Virus record (IMG/VR): IMGVR_UViG_3300045988_151578
Reading direction: 5' to 3' (one strand)
Source: a virus
DNA: 64,000 nt
In this document: positions 5,377-64,000 of the stretch, piece after piece
Position numbering within the stretch: position 1 is the first letter of the stretch
Layout: each line of letters opens with the position of its first letter
Position numbers and translations under genes: made by a program
Notes under the pieces: model-generated
What the model was told of the DNA's origin: nothing
The model's database searches: none
Seen by the model: the letters and a program-made list of their open reading frames with translations, nothing else

Positions 5377-5938
5377 TTTTCATATCTCTTTTAGCTTTCC
5401 TATACCAAAGATTTATGGATTTGTCATTAGCATCGGGGAATTTTTTCTTAACCCTGCGTAATACCCTTTCAATACTAAATCCTTTATGAACCAATTCGAA
5501 TGTGTAGGATTTCTTAGTACCCTTAATAAGGTTAAATTCGTCTCTTTCCTTTGGAGGTTTCTTTTCTCGAGGTTTCTTTATCCCGGGAACTCTTTTAGAT
5601 CTCCTTACTCCATTTTCGTCTTCTTCTCCGAGAAACCCAAGCCTTAATCTTGAACTCCTTAATGGATCATCTTTATCATAACCCAGGGATTCCAATTGTT
5701 TATCCATCCAATCGTCATATTGATTAATTAGATCCTTATTGGGTTTTTCCGTAGAATTGTTTATATAGGATATTAAACCAAATACTCCAGATTTACAAGC
5801 ATCTGGAAAAGGCATACCCAATATAACAGCTTTACGTTTCAAATCCTTATAAGTAAGGTTTCTACCGGATGCCGTTAATAAATTGGTCTTCTCCTTTGAA
5901 GAAAGCTTTGGTTTTAATTTTTTCTTACTTATTGCCAT
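5369..5938 (-). CDS. hypothetical basic protein
   Basis: 189-aa ORF on the coding strand. No motif recognised. Confidence 0.6.
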   Translation of the reverse strand: MAISKKKLKPKLSSKEKTNLLTASGRNLTYKDLKRKAVILGMPFPDACKSGVFGLISYINNSTEKPNKDLINQYDDWMDKQLESLGYDKDDPLRSSRLRLGFLGEEDENGVRRSKRVPGIKKPREKKPPKERDEFNLIKGTKKSYTFELVHKGFSIERVLRRVKKKFPDANDKSINLWYRKAKRDMKNG

Positions 5939-5942
5939 GATA

Positions 5943-6335
5943 TTAATCCTTTTCCGTTGATTTTATTACGATACCCGTGATAAAGTTAGATTCAGCTATA
6001 TACTGATCTGTTTCTTCTATACTTACGTCCTTATGAGATAGTTTTTCGATAAGCCTATTATAAAATGACCGATAATGTTCTTCGGATAATTCTGGTCCTT
6101 GTTGATCGCATATTATAAAACCTCTAATCAATACTGGTAAAAATCTAGAGTATCTAAAGTTATCTTCTATAAGAGAAGAATCGGCAACATCTCCAGCCCA
6201 TTCTAGTAGGATATCATAATATTTCTCTGGAACGAAGTACATCCATAAATAATCTTTCTTATAAGTAGGATCCATATGTTGGAACGGGTTTATATAACCA
6301 TCTACCGATTTTGTTTTTTGATTATTATCATCCAT
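5943..6335 (-). CDS. hypothetical protein (first gene behind early promoter copy 2)
   Basis: 130-aa ORF. Its ATG lies 45 nt downstream of the -7 box at 6381-6388 and is preceded by the leader TGTTTCACTTTAAAAT. Confidence 0.65.
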   Translation of the reverse strand: MDDNNQKTKSVDGYINPFQHMDPTYKKDYLWMYFVPEKYYDILLEWAGDVADSSLIEDNFRYSRFLPVLIRGFIICDQQGPELSEEHYRSFYNRLIEKLSHKDVSIEETDQYIAESNFITGIVIKSTEKD

Positions 6336-11361: not shown

Positions 11362-12123
11362 TTATCCTATAATATCCCATTTATTACCAAATGAATCATC
11401 AAATAAATCCTCTACGGGTATTTCTACATAATTTGGTAAAGAAGTGATATTATCTTTACCAGGAGATTTTATAAAATCTCCGCAAAGTCTTAACCTCTTA
11501 TCATGATATAATTCGTCTATTATCAAAACTCTTAGAGATTCTTTATTAGAATTAAACAAGTAACCATATACTATATTACGATCTTGTTTGATAACTTTAA
11601 ATCCCCATAAATTCAATAGAAACTCCATAGTATGGTATACTTGCATTTGAAAATACCTACTGGTGATCCTTTTACTATTATTCTCTATTGACCAATCTAT
11701 ATCTTTAGGAGTATAACCTAGTATGATAAGACGATTACAGTGTTTAAACAACAAGTTTAGGCATAGACCAAGAAAATGTTCCATTTCACAATCTGGTAGA
11801 TATTTAGATTGCTTAAGGAAAAAATAAGTAGCTAAATCCAAATAACCTCTATCAGTAATGTAATCATTACCTTCATCTATATAAGAACGGTATAGTTTAG
11901 ATCTAAGGTTTAATAGTTTAGCATCCTGCATATACAATTCTCTTGAATCCTTAGACAACATATCTAAATGACTTACATTTTTTGTATCTGGTACTAAATC
12001 AGACATAGAGCTTGATACAAAATTAAGTTCATTTTCCATGTTTAAATACTTTGGTAAAGCTTTAGCTAAAGTGGTTTTACCAATACCACTTGGACCGGAT
12101 ATTTGTACGTATTTTTTACACAT
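11362..12123 (-). CDS. P-loop deoxynucleoside / dNMP kinase-like protein
   Basis: Walker A ISGPSGIGKTTLAKAL, a DRG..D..TYF segment (ITDRGYLDLATYF) and a basic lid-like KRITSRY. Confidence 0.5.
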   Translation of the reverse strand: MCKKYVQISGPSGIGKTTLAKALPKYLNMENELNFVSSSMSDLVPDTKNVSHLDMLSKDSRELYMQDAKLLNLRSKLYRSYIDEGNDYITDRGYLDLATYFFLKQSKYLPDCEMEHFLGLCLNLLFKHCNRLIILGYTPKDIDWSIENNSKRITSRYFQMQVYHTMEFLLNLWGFKVIKQDRNIVYGYLFNSNKESLRVLIIDELYHDKRLRLCGDFIKSPGKDNITSLPNYVEIPVEDLFDDSFGNKWDIIG

Positions 12124-15950: not shown

Positions 15951-18233
15951 CTAGAGGTTTTTATTGTATATACGTTCATACTTATCCATTAAATCAGGGA
16001 ATTTCTTAGGGAATTCCTTAATACTTATGGATTTATATTTCTTATGCTCCTGAAGATATTCCTCTACAGAAAAATCAGGTTGAAGCATTTTATTGTAATC
16101 ATATCCCGGGATAAAAGGTAATTCTTCAGCCATAGTTCTACCAACAGAATAATCCATATCCATTTCAACATCATCTATCTGAAAACCAAAATAGGGTTTA
16201 GTCAAGGGATTTTTAAATATTTGCCACATTTTGTTTACAGTCCATACATTTATATCATTAGGATCAGCATTATAATATACGGCATCATGAACTGTAGCAA
16301 CTTCTTTCATATAGGGTAATTTACCTTGTCTCATATCCCAATATATAAGGATACTACCAAACAAAGTCATATCAGATGCGGGAGATTGACATGGGAAATT
16401 TAATCCCAATCTTATAGCATAAGCTTCTTCATCACTGCTTTCAGAATAAATCTGAGGTAATCTACGTCTTCTACCAAATAATGACATAAGATAACCATGT
16501 TTTCTTAGATATATTTCCTGTTTCTCCTTAAATTCTCTTAATTTTGGATGTTCATTGAAATATTCATCCATTTCTCTTTGAGCTTCCTGTTTAGAAACTA
16601 TAATACCTGCTTTAGGATCTGATAACTTAACTGCTAATAGATTTGCTCCGATACCATATATCAATCCAAAAGCTGTTTGCTTAGCATTTTTTCTACGTAT
16701 TTTCCAAAGAGTATGTTCCGGATGTTGTTCATCATCATATATTGCAAATGCTTCATCATAGGGTACTTTATATTTTTTAGCAGCAATAGCTAAGTGTGGA
16801 TCTTGACCTTCTGCAAATGCTCTTAAATAAGTTTCATCTCCAGATAAGTGAGCCATCATTCTTAATTCTGCTTGAGAAAAATCGGATTCAAAATATAATT
16901 TGCCAGGTTCTGCTACTAATTGCTTCTTTATATTGGGATCTACCGTAGTTTTAGGTATTTGCTGCATATTTGGTTCAGCAGAAGATAATCTACCAGATGT
17001 GGTTCCATGAATTAAATATCGTCCATGTAATCTATGATCATCCTGATATTTTTCACTCCATCCTAAGATATAAGTCTTATACATTTTTTCCAATCCTCTT
17101 AATTCAAGAAGATTATCCAAGAAAATGGCTTTTGGTGAATCGGGATTTTTTACTTTTAACCTAAGATTTGATAGAGTTTCCTCATCAGTACTTGGTTTAC
17201 CCTTATCCGTATATTTTAAAACAGGAAATTTAAATCCATCTTCACTATACATTAATTGAGGTAAATCATTATTACTGTTTAAGTTTACTCCCTTAGGCAG
17301 ATCTAATTCCTTTTTAGAACTATATATTCCAGCTTTAATATTGGATATTTTAGTCAATCTATTAGCTATTTTCTTTTCATTAGAACTACCTTCTGATTCT
17401 TCTAGTTCTTCTATTTCTTTTTGGATAGATTCTATATAGTTACTTATTTTAGTATCTACTAGATATTTACTGAACCTTTTAACCTTTGGCAAATTATAAA
17501 TATTCTCATAGGCTTTCTCTATTTTAGGTTGATAATCCTGTAATAGCTTTTTATTAAATTCAGTATCAATATACAAGCCATTCCTTTCAACGCCTTGTAT
17601 AACCCTTGAAGCAGGCATTATGAGATTTCTGAATAGATTGTAAAATCCCAGTTTAATAAGTTTATTCTCTAAGAAGATACATAATCTAAAAGTATAATCA
17701 CTATCCTGGCATCCATATTTGCATAGAGGTTCTAATTCCTTTTTATCCCAAGGTATCTTATCGAAATTATCTTGTTTTTCATAATCTACATGTTCAGGTA
17801 AGTATCTCCTTACCATACTCTTAAGATCGTTAGGTTTCTCTTCATTAAGAACATATTTAGCAAGCATACCATCTATAACAGTACCTCTATACCAAATCTT
17901 ATACCTATCGAATATCTGAAAGTCAAACTTTAAGTTCCAACCTAATTTAACTACTTTTGGGTTTTCTATAATATGCTTACCAAATATTAGCAAAGCTTTT
18001 TTCCAATTATATCCCTTATCGGTATACTGTTTTGTCTGAAAATGGTCTAAAGGGATAGAACAACCCATACCTGGTTGAAAACATACAGATAGTATAGTTG
18101 GTTTAAAAGTATCATTATATATGGGTTCACTATTAGTTTCAAAGTCTACAGATGAATATCCAGTAGACTTACAAGCTCGAATTAATTTGTAAAGCTCCTT
18201 ATAATTTCTTATTATGTGATATTTAGTTTCCAT
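15951..18233 (-). CDS. family A DNA polymerase with 3'-5' exonuclease domain
   Basis: Exo I VDFETN. Also TSGRLSSAEPNMQQIP, motif A DFSQAELRMMAH, motif B RRKNAKQTAFGLIYG, and motif C VATVHDAV. Confidence 0.95.
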   Translation of the reverse strand: METKYHIIRNYKELYKLIRACKSTGYSSVDFETNSEPIYNDTFKPTILSVCFQPGMGCSIPLDHFQTKQYTDKGYNWKKALLIFGKHIIENPKVVKLGWNLKFDFQIFDRYKIWYRGTVIDGMLAKYVLNEEKPNDLKSMVRRYLPEHVDYEKQDNFDKIPWDKKELEPLCKYGCQDSDYTFRLCIFLENKLIKLGFYNLFRNLIMPASRVIQGVERNGLYIDTEFNKKLLQDYQPKIEKAYENIYNLPKVKRFSKYLVDTKISNYIESIQKEIEELEESEGSSNEKKIANRLTKISNIKAGIYSSKKELDLPKGVNLNSNNDLPQLMYSEDGFKFPVLKYTDKGKPSTDEETLSNLRLKVKNPDSPKAIFLDNLLELRGLEKMYKTYILGWSEKYQDDHRLHGRYLIHGTTSGRLSSAEPNMQQIPKTTVDPNIKKQLVAEPGKLYFESDFSQAELRMMAHLSGDETYLRAFAEGQDPHLAIAAKKYKVPYDEAFAIYDDEQHPEHTLWKIRRKNAKQTAFGLIYGIGANLLAVKLSDPKAGIIVSKQEAQREMDEYFNEHPKLREFKEKQEIYLRKHGYLMSLFGRRRRLPQIYSESSDEEAYAIRLGLNFPCQSPASDMTLFGSILIYWDMRQGKLPYMKEVATVHDAVYYNADPNDINVWTVNKMWQIFKNPLTKPYFGFQIDDVEMDMDYSVGRTMAEELPFIPGYDYNKMLQPDFSVEEYLQEHKKYKSISIKEFPKKFPDLMDKYERIYNKNL

Positions 18234-18276: not shown

Positions 18277-19053
18277 TTAATATTTATCAACTAATTCTGA
18301 TAGATCTCTACTAAGCCCCTTCCAATCTTTTTTGTAAGCATGTAGAGAATCTATATTGTGGTATAAATAACCCGGTGCAACACCAACTTCTTTAGCAATG
18401 TAATTCTTTAATCTCCAAGCTAAGTATACATCGTTACCGAAGTGTTGTATATAATCTGAGGATCTCTGATTATATATCATATGAAGTACCTTTCTTCCGC
18501 CTATGTTCTCTCTTATTAAGAAATGATAATACATTGAACATGGTATTCTTCTAGAACCATCAAGATAATCCTTATCTATAGTTGTATTCCATACACTTAA
18601 TATTGCTTTACGAGTATCAGGATCATCTTTAAGTAACTGTATTACGTTGTCAATGTAATTATTACAATTATCTTTATAAAAGGCTAAATCATTAAATCTT
18701 TCATTATAGGTATAATCAAATACTCCATGATCATTACCTCTGTCTACCAAGAATTGTTCCCAAAGATCCCTTCTTTCTTTCCAAGCTTCTCCCGGGTTTA
18801 TAAAGCTTCTATTTATTCTCTCATTAAATTCGGCTTTAGCCCAATCATATGAATGAGAGAATGTGAACAACCAAACTGGATCACCAATATCTATCAAACA
18901 ATATGACTGAGCGATTATTTCCTTAGTTATATAATCCTCATTACCCTCGATATCTTTATTCTGATAATGTTTAGGTTTTACAGTAAAACCATAACTCCTT
19001 AATTCCCTGCCCATTTCTGACATGAGCTCAAATGAATTTCCAAATATTCTCAT
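18277..19053 (-). CDS. thymidylate-synthase-fold pyrimidine C5 transferase; candidate dCMP hydroxymethylase/methylase
   Basis: IDNVIQLLKDDPDTRKAILSVWN, catalytic IPCSMYYHF, NQRSSDYIQHFGNDVYLAW and DSLHAY align without gaps to E. coli ThyA C146..R166..D169..N177..H207/Y209. Asp occupies the N177 position. The C-terminus is short. Confidence 0.6.
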   Translation of the reverse strand: MRIFGNSFELMSEMGRELRSYGFTVKPKHYQNKDIEGNEDYITKEIIAQSYCLIDIGDPVWLFTFSHSYDWAKAEFNERINRSFINPGEAWKERRDLWEQFLVDRGNDHGVFDYTYNERFNDLAFYKDNCNNYIDNVIQLLKDDPDTRKAILSVWNTTIDKDYLDGSRRIPCSMYYHFLIRENIGGRKVLHMIYNQRSSDYIQHFGNDVYLAWRLKNYIAKEVGVAPGYLYHNIDSLHAYKKDWKGLSRDLSELVDKY

Positions 19054-19093
19054 AGTTTTAATTATTTATTGTTAATCTATAGCAAACGGTCTA

Positions 19094-20029
19094 CTATTTA
19101 CTGTTAGAGTTGTTTTTAGCTTCTCTTTTCATCTTAGCCAGGTATTTCTTTTTATAGGCTTTTCTTTGAGAAAAACTTATTATGTTCTCGGGATATTCAA
19201 TATCATCTTCCTCTATTACTAAGTCCTTAGCATATAGGGGTCTATAAGTATATATATCTGGTCTAAGTACTTTAAAACTTCGGAAATATACCTTGAATGA
19301 AGAAAAATCCTTCTCTTCTCCCTTCTTAAACTTATCAAATACTGACTTAACCTTAGTTACCCAGGGATTATCAATACCCTTTAATACCTTCTTAAGGGAT
19401 TTATGAGTATGATACATGATAAGGGTCTCAGTATTACCATACATCTGGGTAGCAAATACATTTAGCTGTACCGATTGATTAGGTCCATAAATGTATTCAG
19501 CCATCCTCTGAACCAGTAAGAAATCAAAAATGAGCCTTTTAGTAATTTCTGAAGCTCTTAATACCATAGTTATTACAGGTATATCTTCCTGAAATCTTTT
19601 AGAGAATGTAGCCGATATTAGGCATTGCTTACCATTATCATGCTTATTATTGAAGATATAACTTACATTGTAATTCTGATTATATTTCACTTTTAGGAAT
19701 CTTAACTTACTTCTAAGTAAATCTAGCTTGTTAAAATCAATATAATTATTCAGCAAGCTTGACCATTTAGAACTTGTATAGTTAAAACACCTACCATAAT
19801 CAAATTCAGGATCAACCCAGGCTTTTCTTATTCGAATAAATACGTTATATACTACGGCTAATCCACTATTGGCTATAGCTCCTTTATTAAATAATATTGG
19901 GTTCAACTGTAAGAAGTACTCATTAAGTTTTTCCCATGCCTCCTGAGAGGTAGAGAACTCCAGAGTATGAATATTCTCTGAACAATCCATGTTCTCTAAC
20001 CCCTCTAATTGTTTATTCCATCCAGACAT
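19094..20029 (-). CDS. hypothetical protein embedded in the nucleotide-metabolism cluster
   Basis: 311-aa ORF between the ThyA-like and gp56-like genes. There is a faint ThyA-like pattern (..YTSSKWSSLLNNYIDF.., GKQCLISATF, MVLRASEITKRLIFDFLLVQRMAEYI), which is not enough for a call. Confidence 0.5.
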   Translation of the reverse strand: MSGWNKQLEGLENMDCSENIHTLEFSTSQEAWEKLNEYFLQLNPILFNKGAIANSGLAVVYNVFIRIRKAWVDPEFDYGRCFNYTSSKWSSLLNNYIDFNKLDLLRSKLRFLKVKYNQNYNVSYIFNNKHDNGKQCLISATFSKRFQEDIPVITMVLRASEITKRLIFDFLLVQRMAEYIYGPNQSVQLNVFATQMYGNTETLIMYHTHKSLKKVLKGIDNPWVTKVKSVFDKFKKGEEKDFSSFKVYFRSFKVLRPDIYTYRPLYAKDLVIEEDDIEYPENIISFSQRKAYKKKYLAKMKREAKNNSNSK

Positions 20030-20030
20030 A

Positions 20031-20879
20031 TTAATAATTAGTTTTTAATCTCCAAAGGTTTAACTTATACTTCTTAAAGTATAGATTAGTTATACTGTAA
20101 CAATCAAATCCATACATCTTAATAAATCCCATAAATAAATAGAAGGCTTCTACGATATAATTTTGAACTTCATTTTCTTTAGTTAATACCTGAGTTTTCT
20201 TCCATGGTCTACACTTAAGATCATTTCTAGCCATATTAAGGCAATAGGTTATATGGAATATAGCCAATTTCTCTGTTCGGTGATAACCATAATTCATACG
20301 ACTAAATCCCGGGATGTATTCACTATCGGATGATGTTTGGTAATCCACTATATTATATGGAGCAGTAGTTATAGCAGAATCATCCATCTTACTTATAAGT
20401 AAATCACGTCCAACAGCCATTACCTGATTTAAATTGGTGCATACCTTGGTTATATACTTACCTGACCACCTTAGTAAATCACTACTATCAATGTTCAAAT
20501 AAAGAAGGATAGTCATAAGGAATCCCAAAGCATCTGCCTGTTCTTCACAAGCATTCTGCAATGTATCTTTTATATACTGGGTACTTTCATCATCTAACCT
20601 ATCCATATTCCATCCAATAGAATCATTATTCAATAACTGATATACAGTATCGGTAGATTCAAATCCCTCATTTAGTTCCTCTATAACCCTACTTATAAAA
20701 TCCTTTATGATCTCCTGATTACGAGGTATATTAATATTCATAGGATAATCAGGTAATTGTTCTATACCACTATCCTTATAAGCTTTAAGTTGATCCTTAG
20801 CTATGTCGAATATAGTATCTAAAAAATTTAGATTATAGGAATCTATAGATAACTTATCTTTAATATTACGTATATCCAT
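20031..20879 (-). CDS. all-alpha NTP pyrophosphohydrolase (dimeric dUTPase / T4 gp56 dCTPase-like)
   Basis: Acidic metal-binding helices VIEELNEGFES and ACEEQADALGFLMTIL. The C-terminal NLYFKKYKLNLWRLKTNY resembles the gp56 / dUTPase_2 C-terminal motif (..Y.K N..N..R...Y). Confidence 0.55.
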   Translation of the reverse strand: MDIRNIKDKLSIDSYNLNFLDTIFDIAKDQLKAYKDSGIEQLPDYPMNINIPRNQEIIKDFISRVIEELNEGFESTDTVYQLLNNDSIGWNMDRLDDESTQYIKDTLQNACEEQADALGFLMTILLYLNIDSSDLLRWSGKYITKVCTNLNQVMAVGRDLLISKMDDSAITTAPYNIVDYQTSSDSEYIPGFSRMNYGYHRTEKLAIFHITYCLNMARNDLKCRPWKKTQVLTKENEVQNYIVEAFYLFMGFIKMYGFDCYSITNLYFKKYKLNLWRLKTNY

Positions 20880-20881
20880 AA

Positions 20882-21658
20882 TTATAATTTTTCAGTTGAA
20901 ATACCAGATCCCATACCATTAGACCCTCTATCACTACCATTAGATAACTTATCATAAGCTTCATCGGTAGTTTCAAGTAATACGCTTTTGATATATGGTG
21001 TATGTAAGAATTGTATCAACCCCTTATTATTTGAATAAGTAGCCATATCCAAAGTTACAGATTTATCCCCTAAGTTAGCTAAGCCTATATGTATTTCACC
21101 AGTATAATCTGCATCTACTACTTCAGCAGTAAATATCAAGCCATTATTAGTAGCCATACCAGATTTATTCTTAGCCAATAGACAAGTACCTTTATCTACT
21201 ATCCATACCCTTATACCTGAAGGAATAGAAACTCTTCCGTTTGGTTTTATAACTATACTATCTATCTCTCCCAATAGATTAGTATTAAACAAACAGCGAT
21301 GATATTTAGTTATATCAGAGGGTTTTAACAGTGGCATAAAGAAATCTATACCAGCATCATTGTTACAAGCTCTTCTTGGACATTTAACTTTCCTTAATCG
21401 AGTAAAGTAAATCAAATCTGATTCTACTAAATCCTCTACATCATCATGAAGGTGAATTTTATTATTTCTCATAGTTTTCTTATCTTTATTTATTATTTCT
21501 AAACTACCATCTCCAACAAAATCAAGTCTACTCATAAATTCCTCTTTTCTTTTGGCTCTTTTAGCTTGATTTTCTTTAGAAATAGATTCGATATCTCTAT
21601 AAAAACTGTAAAGCTTAAATTTAAAATTTGGCTTTTTATTTCTTTTATGATTTACCAT
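20882..21658 (-). CDS. dut: trimeric dUTPase with an N-terminal extension of about 80 aa
   Basis: Motifs NDAGIDFF (1), NKSGMA (2), VVDADYTGEI (3), GLIQFL (4) and RGSNGMGSG (5). Confidence 0.8.
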   Translation of the reverse strand: MVNHKRNKKPNFKFKLYSFYRDIESISKENQAKRAKRKEEFMSRLDFVGDGSLEIINKDKKTMRNNKIHLHDDVEDLVESDLIYFTRLRKVKCPRRACNNDAGIDFFMPLLKPSDITKYHRCLFNTNLLGEIDSIVIKPNGRVSIPSGIRVWIVDKGTCLLAKNKSGMATNNGLIFTAEVVDADYTGEIHIGLANLGDKSVTLDMATYSNNKGLIQFLHTPYIKSVLLETTDEAYDKLSNGSDRGSNGMGSGISTEKL

Positions 21659-22052
21659 ACATCTCCCTATAGATTTTCCTTACATCCTTAGAAGGTATTT
21701 CGAATTTCTCGGAGCATTTCTTTACTATATCTCTTCGAGTATATTCACCCTTCCTCTTTAATCTACGGATATATTTCTTTAATCCTTGAACATCTATAAG
21801 AGTATCTAAGTCCTTGTAGTGATTTTTGCTTTCTAATTCTTTTCGGGTTATATTTAAGTTTTGAGACATCTTGAAAGCACATAATTCAGAATCACCACAT
21901 ATTCTACACTCAGAAGTACTTAAATCATAATTCTTACCAAAGCATGGATCTCCATTAGAACCTATAAACATAAAAGATATAGGTTCTAATGGATCCTGCT
22001 TAGTAAGATCTAACGTTTTTTTCTTTTTATTGATCTTACATATAGAGCTCAT
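21645..22052 (-). CDS. hypothetical protein
   Basis: 135-aa ORF with a Cys cluster (CFG..ECRICGDSELC) and a basic C-terminus. Confidence 0.55.
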   Translation of the reverse strand: MSSICKINKKKKTLDLTKQDPLEPISFMFIGSNGDPCFGKNYDLSTSECRICGDSELCAFKMSQNLNITRKELESKNHYKDLDTLIDVQGLKKYIRRLKRKGEYTRRDIVKKCSEKFEIPSKDVRKIYREMYGKS

Positions 22053-63988: not shown

Positions 63989-64000
63989 TTGATTGAGCGT

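Follow-up and report, generated by a model that had tools for sequence, protein, structure and literature searches.

Background

Phage T4 modifies cytosine as a mononucleotide, ahead of replication. Its gp42, a dCMP hydroxymethylase, has the thymidylate synthase (ThyA) fold, a Cys nucleophile, an 'ND' dipeptide and no C-terminal tail, and its gp56, an all-alpha pyrophosphatase, does the work of both a dCTPase and a dUTPase; gp1 is the dNMP kinase of the system. The Asp of the dipeptide (Asp179) stands where E. coli ThyA has Asn177; Asn177Asp turns thymidylate synthase to dCMP and T4 Asp179Asn is the reverse switch (PMC8670742). A second position, E. coli Leu143 or T4 Asp145, correlates with a methyl versus a hydroxymethyl product (PMC6400193, PMC13326640). 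The T4-type hydroxymethylase signature is this Asp, three residues ahead of the Cys, plus Ser94, and D145N alone abolishes the formation of 5hm-dCMP (PMC6400193). Specificity for deoxyribose is marked by Ser167 and Arg126 (PMC5175136).

Asp at the Asn177 position is also found in the CMP hydroxymethylases MilA and BcmA and in the flavin-dependent 5-hydroxy-dCMP synthases (RB69 gp48, DLP3 gp80 and AfhB of phage HY126; PDB 9iqu/9iqc). In the MetaGPA study (eLife 2021), Asp177 ThyA homologues were enriched on cytosine-modified contigs from sewage and coastal viromes, and they co-occurred with pyrophosphohydrolase domains (PMC8670742). We found no description of such genes in the "Flandersviridae", and Benler et al. 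(PMC8008677) contains neither 'thymidylate' nor 'dUTPase'. To this extent the novelty suggested by an earlier sequence-only reading of the locus holds; however, Asp177 ThyA homologues were already known markers (PMC8670742), and the Bacteroides phage isolate BF486P2 carries GenBank annotations as 'deoxycytidylate 5-hydroxymethyltransferase'.

The gene set and its conservation

The window analysed here is a stretch of 64,000 nucleotides of viral DNA (IMG/VR record IMGVR_UViG_3300045988_151578). The features considered are:

11362–12123, minus strand: P-loop protein, 253 aa, candidate kinase for modified dCMP (weak dNMP/dN kinase likeness)
15951–18233, minus strand: family A DNA polymerase PolA, 760 aa (ORF list, conserved position)
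18277–19053, minus strand: ThyA-fold enzyme assigned to the cytosine type, 258 aa (Pfam, AlphaFold2, Foldseek, residue mapping)
18430–18432, minus strand: codon of Asp208, the base-discriminating residue (E. coli Asn177 / T4 Asp179 position; alignments)
18547–18549, minus strand: codon of Arg169 (E. coli Leu143 / T4 Asp145 position; alignments)
19094–20029, minus strand: U311, 311 aa, a further protein with the ThyA fold, strongly diverged (hhalign, family alignment)
20031–20879, minus strand: all-alpha NTP pyrophosphatase of the dimeric-dUTPase / T4 gp56 type, 282 aa, candidate dCTPase (Pfam, phrog, hhalign)
20882–21658, minus strand: trimeric dUTPase, 258 aa, of which ca. 95 form an N-terminal extension (Pfam, phrog, PDB, NCBIfam)
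21645–22052, minus strand: p135, 135 aa, Cys-rich and conserved (synteny across sets of 13 and 80 related loci)

All four ORFs of the sequence-only reading had correct coordinates, and it omitted that they lie on the minus strand. The ThyA-like, U311, pyrophosphatase and dUTPase genes form one tightly packed operon on this strand. The order p135 / dUTPase / pyrophosphatase / U311 / ThyA-like / PolA, in which p135 (without a family match in profile searches) always comes first, was constant in the IMG/VR loci that span the block (80 of 80) and persists in relatives down to ca. 35% identity. Gut phages of the "Flandersviridae" type keep the shorter arrangement pyrophosphatase / U311 / ThyA-like / PolA, which recurs in culturable Clostridium perfringens phages. 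In one of these, CPD4, genes CPD4_73, _74 and _75 belong to the same three families and stand in the same order upstream of a polymerase annotated as DNA polymerase I; the set is also present in Clo-PEP-1, CP3, CPAS-15 and P21. CPD4 differs from the window phage in its Firmicutes host, its 52-kb genome and the identity of only 38%, and no trimeric dUTPase homologue was detected beside its gene set. In these Clostridium phages the annotations of the three genes go no further than 'hypothetical' or 'thymidylate synthase'. Within the family of the window phage, the gene set belongs to the conserved core.

This family comprises very common human-gut Bacteroides phages. The genome has 32% G+C. Just beyond the window, these genomes share a conserved gene that resembles cytosine-C5 DNA methyltransferases and has its motifs intact. 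The scanned ORFs, and the precomputed Pfam hits of the two stretches that flank the window, gave no dCMP deaminase and no thymidylate synthase of a canonical kind, whether Asn177 type or ThyX. Neither DNA glycosyltransferases nor other group transferases turned up in the genome parts scanned. The genomes are readily assembled from ordinary short-read metagenomes (PMC8008677), which fits unmodified or lightly modified DNA.

The main ThyA-fold enzyme

ORF 18277–19053 matches Pfam PF00303 (Thymidylat_synt; E 9.2e-17; 61.5 bits, cut-off 24.3) and phrog_160 (2e-28). The ThyA fold claimed for it was borne out by structure prediction: the AlphaFold2 model (pLDDT 85.6, pTM 0.87) matches the CMP hydroxymethylase MilA and many thymidylate synthases in the PDB with a Foldseek probability of 1.0, MilA being the best match (E 2.5e-13, TM 0.68). 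The proposal of Asp at the Asn177 position could have failed by a shift of one residue, and this was checked by three independent alignments (phmmer against S. aureus thymidylate synthase 4dq1 and MilA 5b6d; MAFFT with E. coli ThyA and T4 gp42; L-INS-i with 12 reference homologues), all of which place Asp208 there and not the neighbouring Asn207. Asp208 and Cys172 are unchanged in 121 of 121 homologues, and Asp is also kept at this position in all distant relatives carrying the gene set. The alignment to ThyA, described as gapless, is so within the quoted segments, with a 5-residue insert (ENIGG) between the Cys and QRS segments. The C-terminus is short, as had been noticed, ending 18 residues past H238-A-Y240 compared with 55 past Y209 in E. 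coli ThyA.

The signature of the enzyme reads Arg169 / Cys172 / Ser173 / Asp200 / Asp208 at E. coli positions 143 / 146 / 147 / 169 / 177, and it is shared by the CPD4 enzyme (Arg143 / Ser147 / Asp169 / Asp177). Trp98, Tyr116 and Asp200 are retained; neither Leu143 nor His147 of ThyA is present, and the C-terminal tail is absent. Two residues are of the deoxyribose type, Ser198 (= Ser167) and Arg148 (= Arg126), whereas in MilA the corresponding residues, for ribose, are Ala176 and Lys133, and position 143 is Asp. By Asp208, Ser198, Arg148 and the Cys nucleophile, we class ORF 18277–19053 as a ThyA-fold enzyme of cytosine type.

It resembles T4 gp42 in fold, nucleophile, the register of the 'ND' dipeptide and the missing tail, but has Arg169 and Tyr114 in place of Asp145 and Ser94. 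Arg169 matches neither known state of this position, and because the hydroxymethylase signature is missing, a 5-hydroxymethyl product is no better founded than another. The identity between the T4 system and the set in the window is about 20% or less, and gp42 was absent from the PDB sequence matches. The 5-hydroxy-dCMP synthases did appear in both sequence and structure matches, and are alike in fold, in Asp at the Asn177 position and in size. Such a flavin-dependent activity was nevertheless ruled out, since Asp169 is kept (as Asp200) and these enzymes carry the diagnostic D169N (PMC13326640); at 143 they have Glu, compared with Arg here. With the MetaGPA homologues the enzyme shares Asp177, a non-His residue at 147, a pyrophosphohydrolase nearby and an origin in sewage/gut-type phages; this family is not resolved in that study, where the Arg143 state and the U311 partner are not described.

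A second ThyA-fold protein

ORF 19094–20029 had been passed over in the sequence-only reading. No Pfam or NCBIfam family was found for its product, U311; however, hhalign against 10 reference ThyA homologues gave a probability of 93.4% (P 2.6e-7, 175 collinear columns), and against the family of ORF 18277–19053 P values of 1.7e-4 to 1.8e-3. Its HMM ranked CPD4_74 first and ThyA-fold proteins next in a small test set. The only PDB entries reached by its profile, weakly, were the 5-hydroxy-dCMP synthases 9iqu/9iqc, with a two-segment match to the dCMP hydroxylase of phage HY126. U311 has a Cys and an Arg of its own, the invariant residues of its family being Tyr84, Lys88, Tyr96, Cys136, Arg158 and Asp169, the last of which falls at the Asn177 position. 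Glu161 and Gly occupy positions 169 and 143, unlike the Asn and Glu of the 5-hydroxy-dCMP synthases. On these profile comparisons we identify U311 as a second ThyA-fold homologue, previously unrecognised, and the constant partner of ORF 18277–19053.

Pyrophosphatases, polymerase and kinase-like protein

The assignment of ORF 20031–20879 to the gp56-type pyrophosphatases, as a divergent member, is sustained by Pfam PF08761 (dUTPase_2; 27.5 bits, cut-off 22.9), by phrog_12184 and phrog_173, and by its last 43 residues, which match the C-terminus of T4 gp56 (hhalign P 1e-3) and share its K..N..R...Y motif. Its motifs are RVIEELNEGFES (residue 64), ACEEQADALGF (110), ARNDLKCRPWKK (217) and FKKYKLNLWRLKTNY (268 to end); the acidic residue of motif 4 varies in the family alignment. 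ORF 20882–21658 is a trimeric dUTPase, as proposed, with all five motifs (AGIDF, KNKSG, VVDADYTGEI, GLIQFL and DRGSNGMGSG) and matches to PF00692, phrog_135 (2e-19) and NCBIfam dut (3.5e-14). At E ≤ 0.01 the PDB gave 36 matches, every one a dUTPase or dUTPase-like and none a dCTP deaminase. As the operon already has a complete dUTPase, separate here unlike in T4, a distinct job is left for the all-alpha pyrophosphatase. It is a reasonable candidate for a dCTPase, its specificity for dCTP being a guess.

Any modified dCTP would have to be accepted by PolA, whose gene directly follows the ThyA-like gene. The more distant ORF 11362–12123, taken earlier for a d(N)MP-kinase-like protein, does have a P-loop (GPSGIGKT, residue 10) and a TDRGYLD motif (residue 90), but its kinase likeness is weak (Pfam dNK 7.7e-4, below cut-off; AAA_28 27.0 bits; phrog_761 'thymidylate kinase' 7.7e-6; PDB dNK 8puu E 0.17) and none to T4 gp1 was detectable. 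We regard the kinase assignment as weak.

A proposed pathway and its alternatives

The probable role of the gene set is to supply phage DNA with a cytosine building block of altered chemistry. In the scheme that we propose, to which we give an even chance, the block 22052–18277 would be an operon altering the pyrimidine deoxynucleotide pool of the phage, in steps ending in the incorporation of modified cytosine. The all-alpha pyrophosphatase would convert dCTP to dCMP, lowering the canonical dCTP and feeding the substrate, and the trimeric dUTPase would bar dUTP from DNA. The ThyA-fold enzyme, judging from Asp208, Ser198, Arg148 and the published mutagenesis, would take dCMP and neither dUMP nor CMP; Cys172 would attack C6 and the one-carbon unit of methylene-tetrahydrofolate would pass to C5. 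Water might then trap the exocyclic methylene intermediate, with 5-hydroxymethyl-dCMP as the product, or another nucleophile might do so. Trapping is favoured over a methyl product because no tail seals the site and Arg occupies the Leu143 position; we put it forward tentatively, since the water-activating Asp of T4 is absent. U311, with Cys136, Arg158, Glu161 and Asp169, could act on the same or a derived cytosine nucleotide, either performing a second step of the chemistry or serving as an obligate partner, and the product would be phosphorylated by a phage or host kinase and incorporated by PolA.

For this pathway count the invariant Asp208, the fold, Ser198 and Arg148, the retained Asp200, the published evidence on the Asn177 position, the syntenic operon with two pyrophosphatases, U311, the recurrence of the set in CPD4, and the scans that gave neither a canonical thymidylate synthase nor a dCMP deaminase. 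Against it count the absent Asp145/Ser94 pair, the C5 methyltransferase-like gene, the failure to detect a transferase in the genome parts scanned (including the carbamoyltransferase to which MetaGPA tied the novel 5-carbamoyloxymethylcytosine), the weak kinase, the guessed dCTP specificity and the easy metagenome assembly.

The alternative that survives best, unlikely in our judgement, is conversion of deoxycytidine to thymidine nucleotides for an AT-rich genome, the virion DNA being canonical except at methyltransferase sites. It would run from dCTP to dCMP, to 5-methyl-dCMP by the ThyA-fold enzyme, and to dTMP by U311 or a host dCMP deaminase. Attack of Cys at C6 promotes deamination at C4, and U311 could for this reason be the deaminase; yet we know of no ThyA-fold deaminase. 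Conversion would suit the 68% A+T, the absence of Asn-type thymidylate synthase or ThyX from the regions scanned, the easily sequenced and assembled genomes, the unsubstituted cytosine implied by the methyltransferase-like gene, and the finding, cited in PMC8670742, that thymidylate synthases become dCMP methylases when Asn is exchanged for Asp. However, methyl transfer requires that hydride be transferred within a hydrophobic site that is sealed, and this enzyme has no tail and Arg at the Leu143 position; moreover, the conversion would be redundant in CPD4, where the same gene set accompanies an annotated dCMP deaminase and a thymidine kinase.

Next in rank, and also unlikely, is a literal copy of T4, with all virion cytosine replaced by 5-hydroxymethylcytosine, possibly further decorated. 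The features shared with gp42, the gp56-like pyrophosphatase within the operon and the kinase-like P-loop protein nearby agree with it, and the "T4-style" label of the sequence-only reading is partly right, for the cytosine-type enzyme and its operon with a dUTPase and a pyrophosphatase. The label does not extend to Arg and Tyr at the hydroxymethylase-defining positions, to glucosyl or other transferases and a gp1 homologue, none of which was found, to U311, which has no T4 counterpart, or to the conserved methyltransferase-like gene; nor were homologues of the T4 functions that exclude cytosine DNA found.

Ordinary nucleotide supply of the kind found in many phages, in which a divergent thymidylate synthase that tolerates Asp would turn dUMP into dTMP, is improbable. 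The gene adjoins a true dUTPase, a producer of dUMP, and public annotations say 'thymidylate synthase', but Asn is the rule in dUMP-using enzymes (PMC8670742) where the homologues here have Asp without exception, the thymidylate synthase Leu143, His147 and tail are all missing, and scores against the NCBIfam thymidylate synthase equivalogs are far under their cut-offs (e.g., 65 against 174). Least probable is a product not meant for DNA, either a modified cytosine ribonucleotide (as with MilA and BcmA) or a signalling or inhibitory nucleotide made during infection: MilA is the best structural match and Ala159 of U311, at the Ser167 position, is the state that lets MilA accept ribose, but the main enzyme is of deoxyribose type, the operon is part of the replication module and stands just upstream of PolA, and the Ala is not conserved among U311 homologues (Ala, Ser, Thr or Val).

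If, as we think probable, cytosine is modified, complete replacement is disfavoured because the C5 methyltransferase-like gene needs unsubstituted C5 in DNA; perhaps only part of the cytosine is replaced, or other DNA is the target of the methyltransferase. The gut-phage enzymes would then represent a variant of the cytosine-type ThyA set, with the Arg143 state and an added second ThyA-fold protein.

The gene block and its setting

We consider it rather likely that the operon containing the ThyA-like gene makes a C5-modified deoxycytidine nucleotide. Every gene in the window is on the minus strand and the G+C content is about 31%. The four ORFs of the sequence-only reading turned out to belong to a tightly packed block, with gaps of -14 to 43 nucleotides between neighboring genes, that runs in transcription order as follows.

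22052-21645, minus strand: p135, a 135-aa Cys-rich protein (first)
21658-20882, minus strand: trimeric dUTPase, 258 aa (second)
20879-20031, minus strand: all-alpha NTP pyrophosphatase (PPase), 282 aa (third)
20029-19094, minus strand: U311, a 311-aa protein (fourth)
19053-18277, minus strand: ThyA-like enzyme, 258 aa (fifth)
18233-15951, minus strand: PolA, a family A DNA polymerase (last)

Elsewhere in the window there are further replication genes (a DnaB-type helicase, a primase-like Toprim-domain protein, an SF2 helicase and RecA/UvsX-, FEN- and SbcCD-like proteins) and a structural module with contractile tail, TerL, major head protein, sheath and baseplate. The first 12.4 kb are 100% identical to an 80,376-bp human gut metagenome contig, and the last 12.3 kb are 99.99% identical to another contig of 80,389 bp. 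The block region had no match among GenBank phages by Megablast. By gene content, genome size and layout the phage resembles the candidate family “Flandersviridae” (Gubaphage), phages of Bacteroides and Parabacteroides; this is a resemblance and not a phylogeny. These phages have contractile tails, a median genome of 85 kb, DnaB, DnaG, PolA and ca. 20 kb of unknown genes, and turn up in human gut viromes at about the frequency of crAss-like phages (PMC8008677). Outside the window, a set of small genes lying upstream of the terminase includes one for a pyrimidine-dimer DNA glycosylase that resembles T4 endonuclease V (Pfam Pyr_excise; 5724-6197, minus strand, of L003, a locus that extends past the window end).

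Through the ThyA-like family we recovered 80 IMG/VR loci (L101-L180), and all of them, as far as each contig reaches, show one order of p135, dUTPase, PPase, U311, ThyA-like gene and PolA, with small inserted ORFs as the sole interruptions. The block is also kept in further relatives reached through single distant U311 members. Many of the 80 loci have extra ORFs of 147–190 aa at varying points between dUTPase, PPase, U311, the ThyA-like gene and PolA, and after PolA, a pattern of mobile (homing-endonuclease-like) insertions; in some of them PolA is split. In the cultured Clostridium perfringens phage CPD4 (MK017819), successive genes (locus L181, 1539-3762) encode members of the PPase family (CPD4_73, 1e-23), the U311 family (CPD4_74, 2e-42) and the ThyA-like family (CPD4_75, 7e-60, with Arg143 and Asp177 in E. 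coli ThyA numbering), followed by DNA polymerase I. That these three genes travel together across host phyla argues for one pathway. A dCMP deaminase and a thymidine kinase are annotated in other parts of CPD4 (locus L189, 34759-34944 and 42075-42662). We found no DNA modification or restriction-digest data in the literature on CPD4-like phages.

The ThyA-like enzyme

As marks of the thymidylate synthase superfamily we took the ThyA fold together with the Cys146 nucleophile, Arg166, Ser167, Asp169, His207 and Tyr209. The enzyme matches the Pfam family (PF00303) at 9e-17 and 61.5 bits, against a cut-off of 24.3, and its predicted model (pLDDT 85.6) retrieves MilA and many thymidylate synthases with a Foldseek probability of 1.0. 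The corresponding Cys172, Arg197, Ser198, Asp200, His238 and Tyr240 vary little or not at all among the homologues. The sequence-only reading had proposed Asp at the base-discriminating Asn177 position and had named a shift of one residue as its refutation. This shift did not occur in any of three alignments, i.e., phmmer pairwise comparisons against PDB chains, MAFFT with 120 homologues plus E. coli ThyA and T4 gp42 (these two from annotated records), and L-INS-i with twelve reference homologues whose product is known or predictable. All three place Asp208 at the position of E. coli Asn177 and T4 Asp179, and this residue is invariant in 121 out of 121 homologues and in distant relatives. Asn207 was rejected for this position, given the agreement of all alignments and the identical ND pair of T4 gp42, in which Asp179 is the functional residue. 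We regard the fold and the mapping of Asp208 as near certain.

A canonical ThyA that converts dUMP to dTMP does not fit these residues. Asp208, Arg169 and Ser173 stand in place of Asn177, Leu143 and His147, the scores against the NCBIfam thymidylate synthase equivalogs are far under the cut-off, and the protein ends 18 residues past the HAY motif (ca. 20 had been estimated by eye), with no C-terminal tail sealing the folate site. Hydride transfer by thymidylate synthase needs the hydrophobic Leu and this tail. A flavin-dependent 5-hydroxy-dCMP synthase, marked by Asn at the Asp169 position (PMC13326640), does not fit either, with Asp200 in 120 of the 121 homologues. Ser167 and Arg126 mark the deoxyribonucleotide-specific ThyA homologues (PMC5175136), and the equivalents here, Ser198 and Arg148, are of this type and not of the ribonucleotide type of MilA.

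The likeness to T4 dCMP hydroxymethylase, which was the core of the earlier proposal, held in part. Asp208 and the nucleophile Cys172 are as in T4 gp42, but the water-activation signature, an acidic residue (Asp or Glu) at position -3 from the catalytic Cys combined with Ser or Thr in the place of Ser94, is missing; in T4 (Asp145 and Ser94) the change D145N abolishes the formation of 5hm-dCMP (PMC6400193). Arg169 and Tyr114 occupy these positions, and do so without variation across the family, the distant relatives and CPD4. The published residue rules were correctly reproduced on the control sequences of the L-INS-i alignment.

Residues of ThyA homologues at E. coli ThyA positions (L-INS-i alignment)
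E. coli ThyA (control): Asn177, Asp169, Leu143
hmU enzymes of M6 and CampHawk (control): Asn177, Asp143
T4 gp42 (control): Asp177, Asp169, Asp143
5-hydroxy-dCMP synthases of PhaR5 and RHph_I1_9 (control): Asp177, Asn169, Glu143
ThyA-like enzyme of the window: Asp177, Asp169, Arg143, Ser147

Arg143 is kept in every relative with the gene set, CPD4 included, and we found no description of the combination Arg143/Ser147/Asp169/Asp177 in the accessible literature. Judging from Asp177 and Asp169, the deoxyribose-type Ser167 and Arg126 equivalents and the missing tail, the enzyme should bind dCMP and use folate. As to the product, our weak preference is for hydroxymethyl, given the open and polar active site.

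U311, a putative second ThyA-fold protein

Between the PPase and the ThyA-like enzyme lies U311, which the sequence-only reading had passed over. It has no match in Pfam or NCBIfam, none in PDB by phmmer, and in PHROGs it matches phrog_34294 alone, a family of unknown function. Nevertheless, U311 is better conserved than its neighbors, with 75–80% identity among relatives vs. 62–66% for the ThyA-like enzyme. An exhaustive HMMER search gave homologues in 151 clusters at 50% identity, and six columns are invariant in 70 diverse members (Tyr84, Lys88, Tyr96, Cys136, Arg158, and Asp169).

Profile-profile comparison connects this family to the neighboring ThyA-like one (P 1.8e-3, or 1.7e-4 with greedier settings). 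With a profile of ten diverse reference ThyA homologues, none of them from the ThyA-like family of the window, hhalign gave a probability of 93.4% and a P of 2.6e-7 over 175 collinear columns. In this alignment Cys136 falls on the catalytic Cys, Arg158 on Arg166, Glu161 on Asp169, Asp169 on Asn177 and Tyr206 on Tyr209, so that on profiles both whole-fold homology and the conserved nucleophile Cys and Arg166 are present. In a small test set searched with the U311 HMM, ThyA-fold proteins rank directly below the true homologue, and the only PDB matches, weak and in two segments, are to the dCMP hydroxylase of phage HY126. The assignment is made on sequence profiles because structure prediction failed: the AF2 model from a shallow alignment had a pLDDT of 46, and its Foldseek matches were discarded as meaningless. 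On these profiles U311 is very likely a ThyA-fold protein, and probably a second one of the cytosine type and catalytic. Several relatives have U311 duplicated in tandem (L007, 6001-7768; L008, 5971-8570; L014, 5938-7774), with the invariant residues kept in both copies.

Enzymes of the nucleotide pool

The 282-aa PPase has what is expected of an all-alpha NTP pyrophosphatase, that is, a dUTPase_2 match (PF08761, above the cut-off), acidic metal-binding helices and the C-terminal motif K..N..R...Y. Glu67, Glu68, Glu71, Glu112, Glu113, Asp116, Lys269, Asn274 and Arg277 are invariant, and Tyr282 nearly so (at least 90%). It had been compared to the dCTPase/dUTPase gp56 of T4. Membership of the dimeric dUTPase family and the C-terminal motif, which gp56 shares, are in line with this, but the similarity to gp56 itself is marginal (P 1e-3). 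We know of no sequence rule for the base specificity of these pyrophosphatases. We infer that the PPase is a candidate dCTPase (dCTP/dCDP to dCMP), solely because a dedicated dUTPase coexists with it.

The identification of the latter as a trimeric dUTPase was correct. Its five conserved motifs, including (I/V)D.DY.GE and the C-terminal RG..G.GS.G, are at residues 102, 163, 180, 213 and 243, and all of its PDB matches are dUTPases or dUTPase-like. A dCTP deaminase was rejected on these matches, on motif 3 with the Tyr of dUTPases and on motif 5. The protein has an N-terminal extension of ca. 95 residues, in which Lys, Arg and Asn are abundant and no family is detectable; some relatives are shorter (180–196 aa). 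The P-loop protein at 11362-12123 (minus strand), put forward as a d(N)MP kinase-like component, is generically kinase-like, with a generic P-loop and a TMPK-like DR motif only, but BLASTP shows no similarity to the T4 dNMP kinase gp1.

Fate of the proposed modified nucleotide

That the C5-modified nucleotide ends up in virion DNA seems to us evenly balanced. About 170 bp past window position 64000, near-identical contigs encode a 339-aa DNA cytosine-5 methyltransferase-like protein (L003, 8031-9050, plus strand). It matches PF00145 (precomputed) and TIGR00675 (6.5e-9), and has the motifs AGQG, SPDCG, ENLP, Q.SRKR, MGFP and AKGsV, with the unusual “SPDCG” at motif IV instead of “PCQ.” Across the family this gene is kept at 63–70% identity on contigs that also carry the ThyA-like gene. 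DNA in which every cytosine bears a C5 group offers a C5 methyltransferase no substrate. Since such an enzyme needs a free C5, either replacement is partial, or other DNA is its target, or the pathway works on the pool and does not end in a modified base. The gene thus cuts against total cytosine replacement, and we find it quite improbable that the product is 5-hydroxymethylcytosine replacing all cytosine as in T4. It is unlikely, if somewhat less so, that the Arg143/Asp177 enzyme and U311 as its obligate partner jointly make a cytosine derivative other than the three mononucleotide products known so far (5-methyl-, 5-hydroxymethyl- and 5-hydroxy-dCMP), and that both “Flandersviridae” and culturable C. 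perfringens phages have this base in their DNA.

The scanned ORFs and the precomputed Pfam hits of the flanking regions yielded no DNA glycosyltransferase or comparable transferase. In some Flandersviridae the replication module contains inserted genes for ispD-like and licD-like nucleotidyltransferases, which the authors relate to the host cell wall or to isoprenoid synthesis (PMC8008677). These genes were not found in the loci fetched here. With a cytosine-type ThyA module close by, their products might act on DNA and decorate a hydroxymethyl group there, but this is pure speculation.

The DNA is strongly depleted in CpG. In the whole window, and also in the loci L003, L005, L007, L008, L016-L018, L103 and L104, CpG is at 0.42 of expectation with no excess of TpG/CpA (0.89). 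GCG/CGC is at 0.11, GCGC and CGCG do not occur (ca. 42 expected of each), CC/GG is enriched (1.37), and GATC, CTAG and CATG are also under-represented (Markov model, z -7 to -5). CpG depletion is absent in T4 (0.95) and in the B. fragilis phage BF486P2 (0.84), and present in C. perfringens phages with or without the gene set. We rejected it as an indirect sign of cytosine modification, given the low CpG of C. perfringens phages that lack the gene set (0.27) and the missing TpG/CpA excess.

Relation to known systems and significance

The sequence-only reading knew of no cytosine modification in myophages of Bacteroidota. The general idea is not new, because phage ThyA homologues with Asp177 are established markers of cytosine modification, in T4, by MetaGPA (PMC8670742) and in PMC13326640, and because two genes of the isolate BF486P2 (OP172667; locus L182, 874-4387) already bear the annotation dCMP hydroxymethyltransferase. 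These flank dut and both are of the ordinary Asp143 and Asp177 kind, unlike the enzyme of the window; one of them, BF486P2_27, is very divergent (9 bits against the HMM of the ThyA-like family of the window). Pairs of ThyA-fold genes may recur among Bacteroides phages. In Maribacter phage Molly_2, with a marine Bacteroidota host, a ThyA homologue with Asn177 and Asp143 (hmU) adjoins a “beta glucosyl transferase” and UDP-sugar enzymes (locus L187, 1389-3882), likely a thymidine-type hypermodification cluster.

What appears to be new is the Arg143/Asp177 subclass, its constant ThyA-fold partner U311 and the place of both families in a core module of a highly abundant family of gut phages, the description of which omits them. 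We found no literature linking Flandersviridae or Gubaphage to modified bases, nor reports on the chemistry of their DNA. The ThyA-like enzymes break the published residue rules now used to predict the products of phage ThyA homologues, and U311 reveals a hidden ThyA-fold family listed as “hypothetical” in databases. The occurrence of the PPase, U311, ThyA-like and PolA set in easily grown C. perfringens phages means that an experimental model exists. A modified cytosine would affect the escape of these phages from the restriction and CRISPR systems of Bacteroides, their recovery by sequencing and the host range inferred from spacers.
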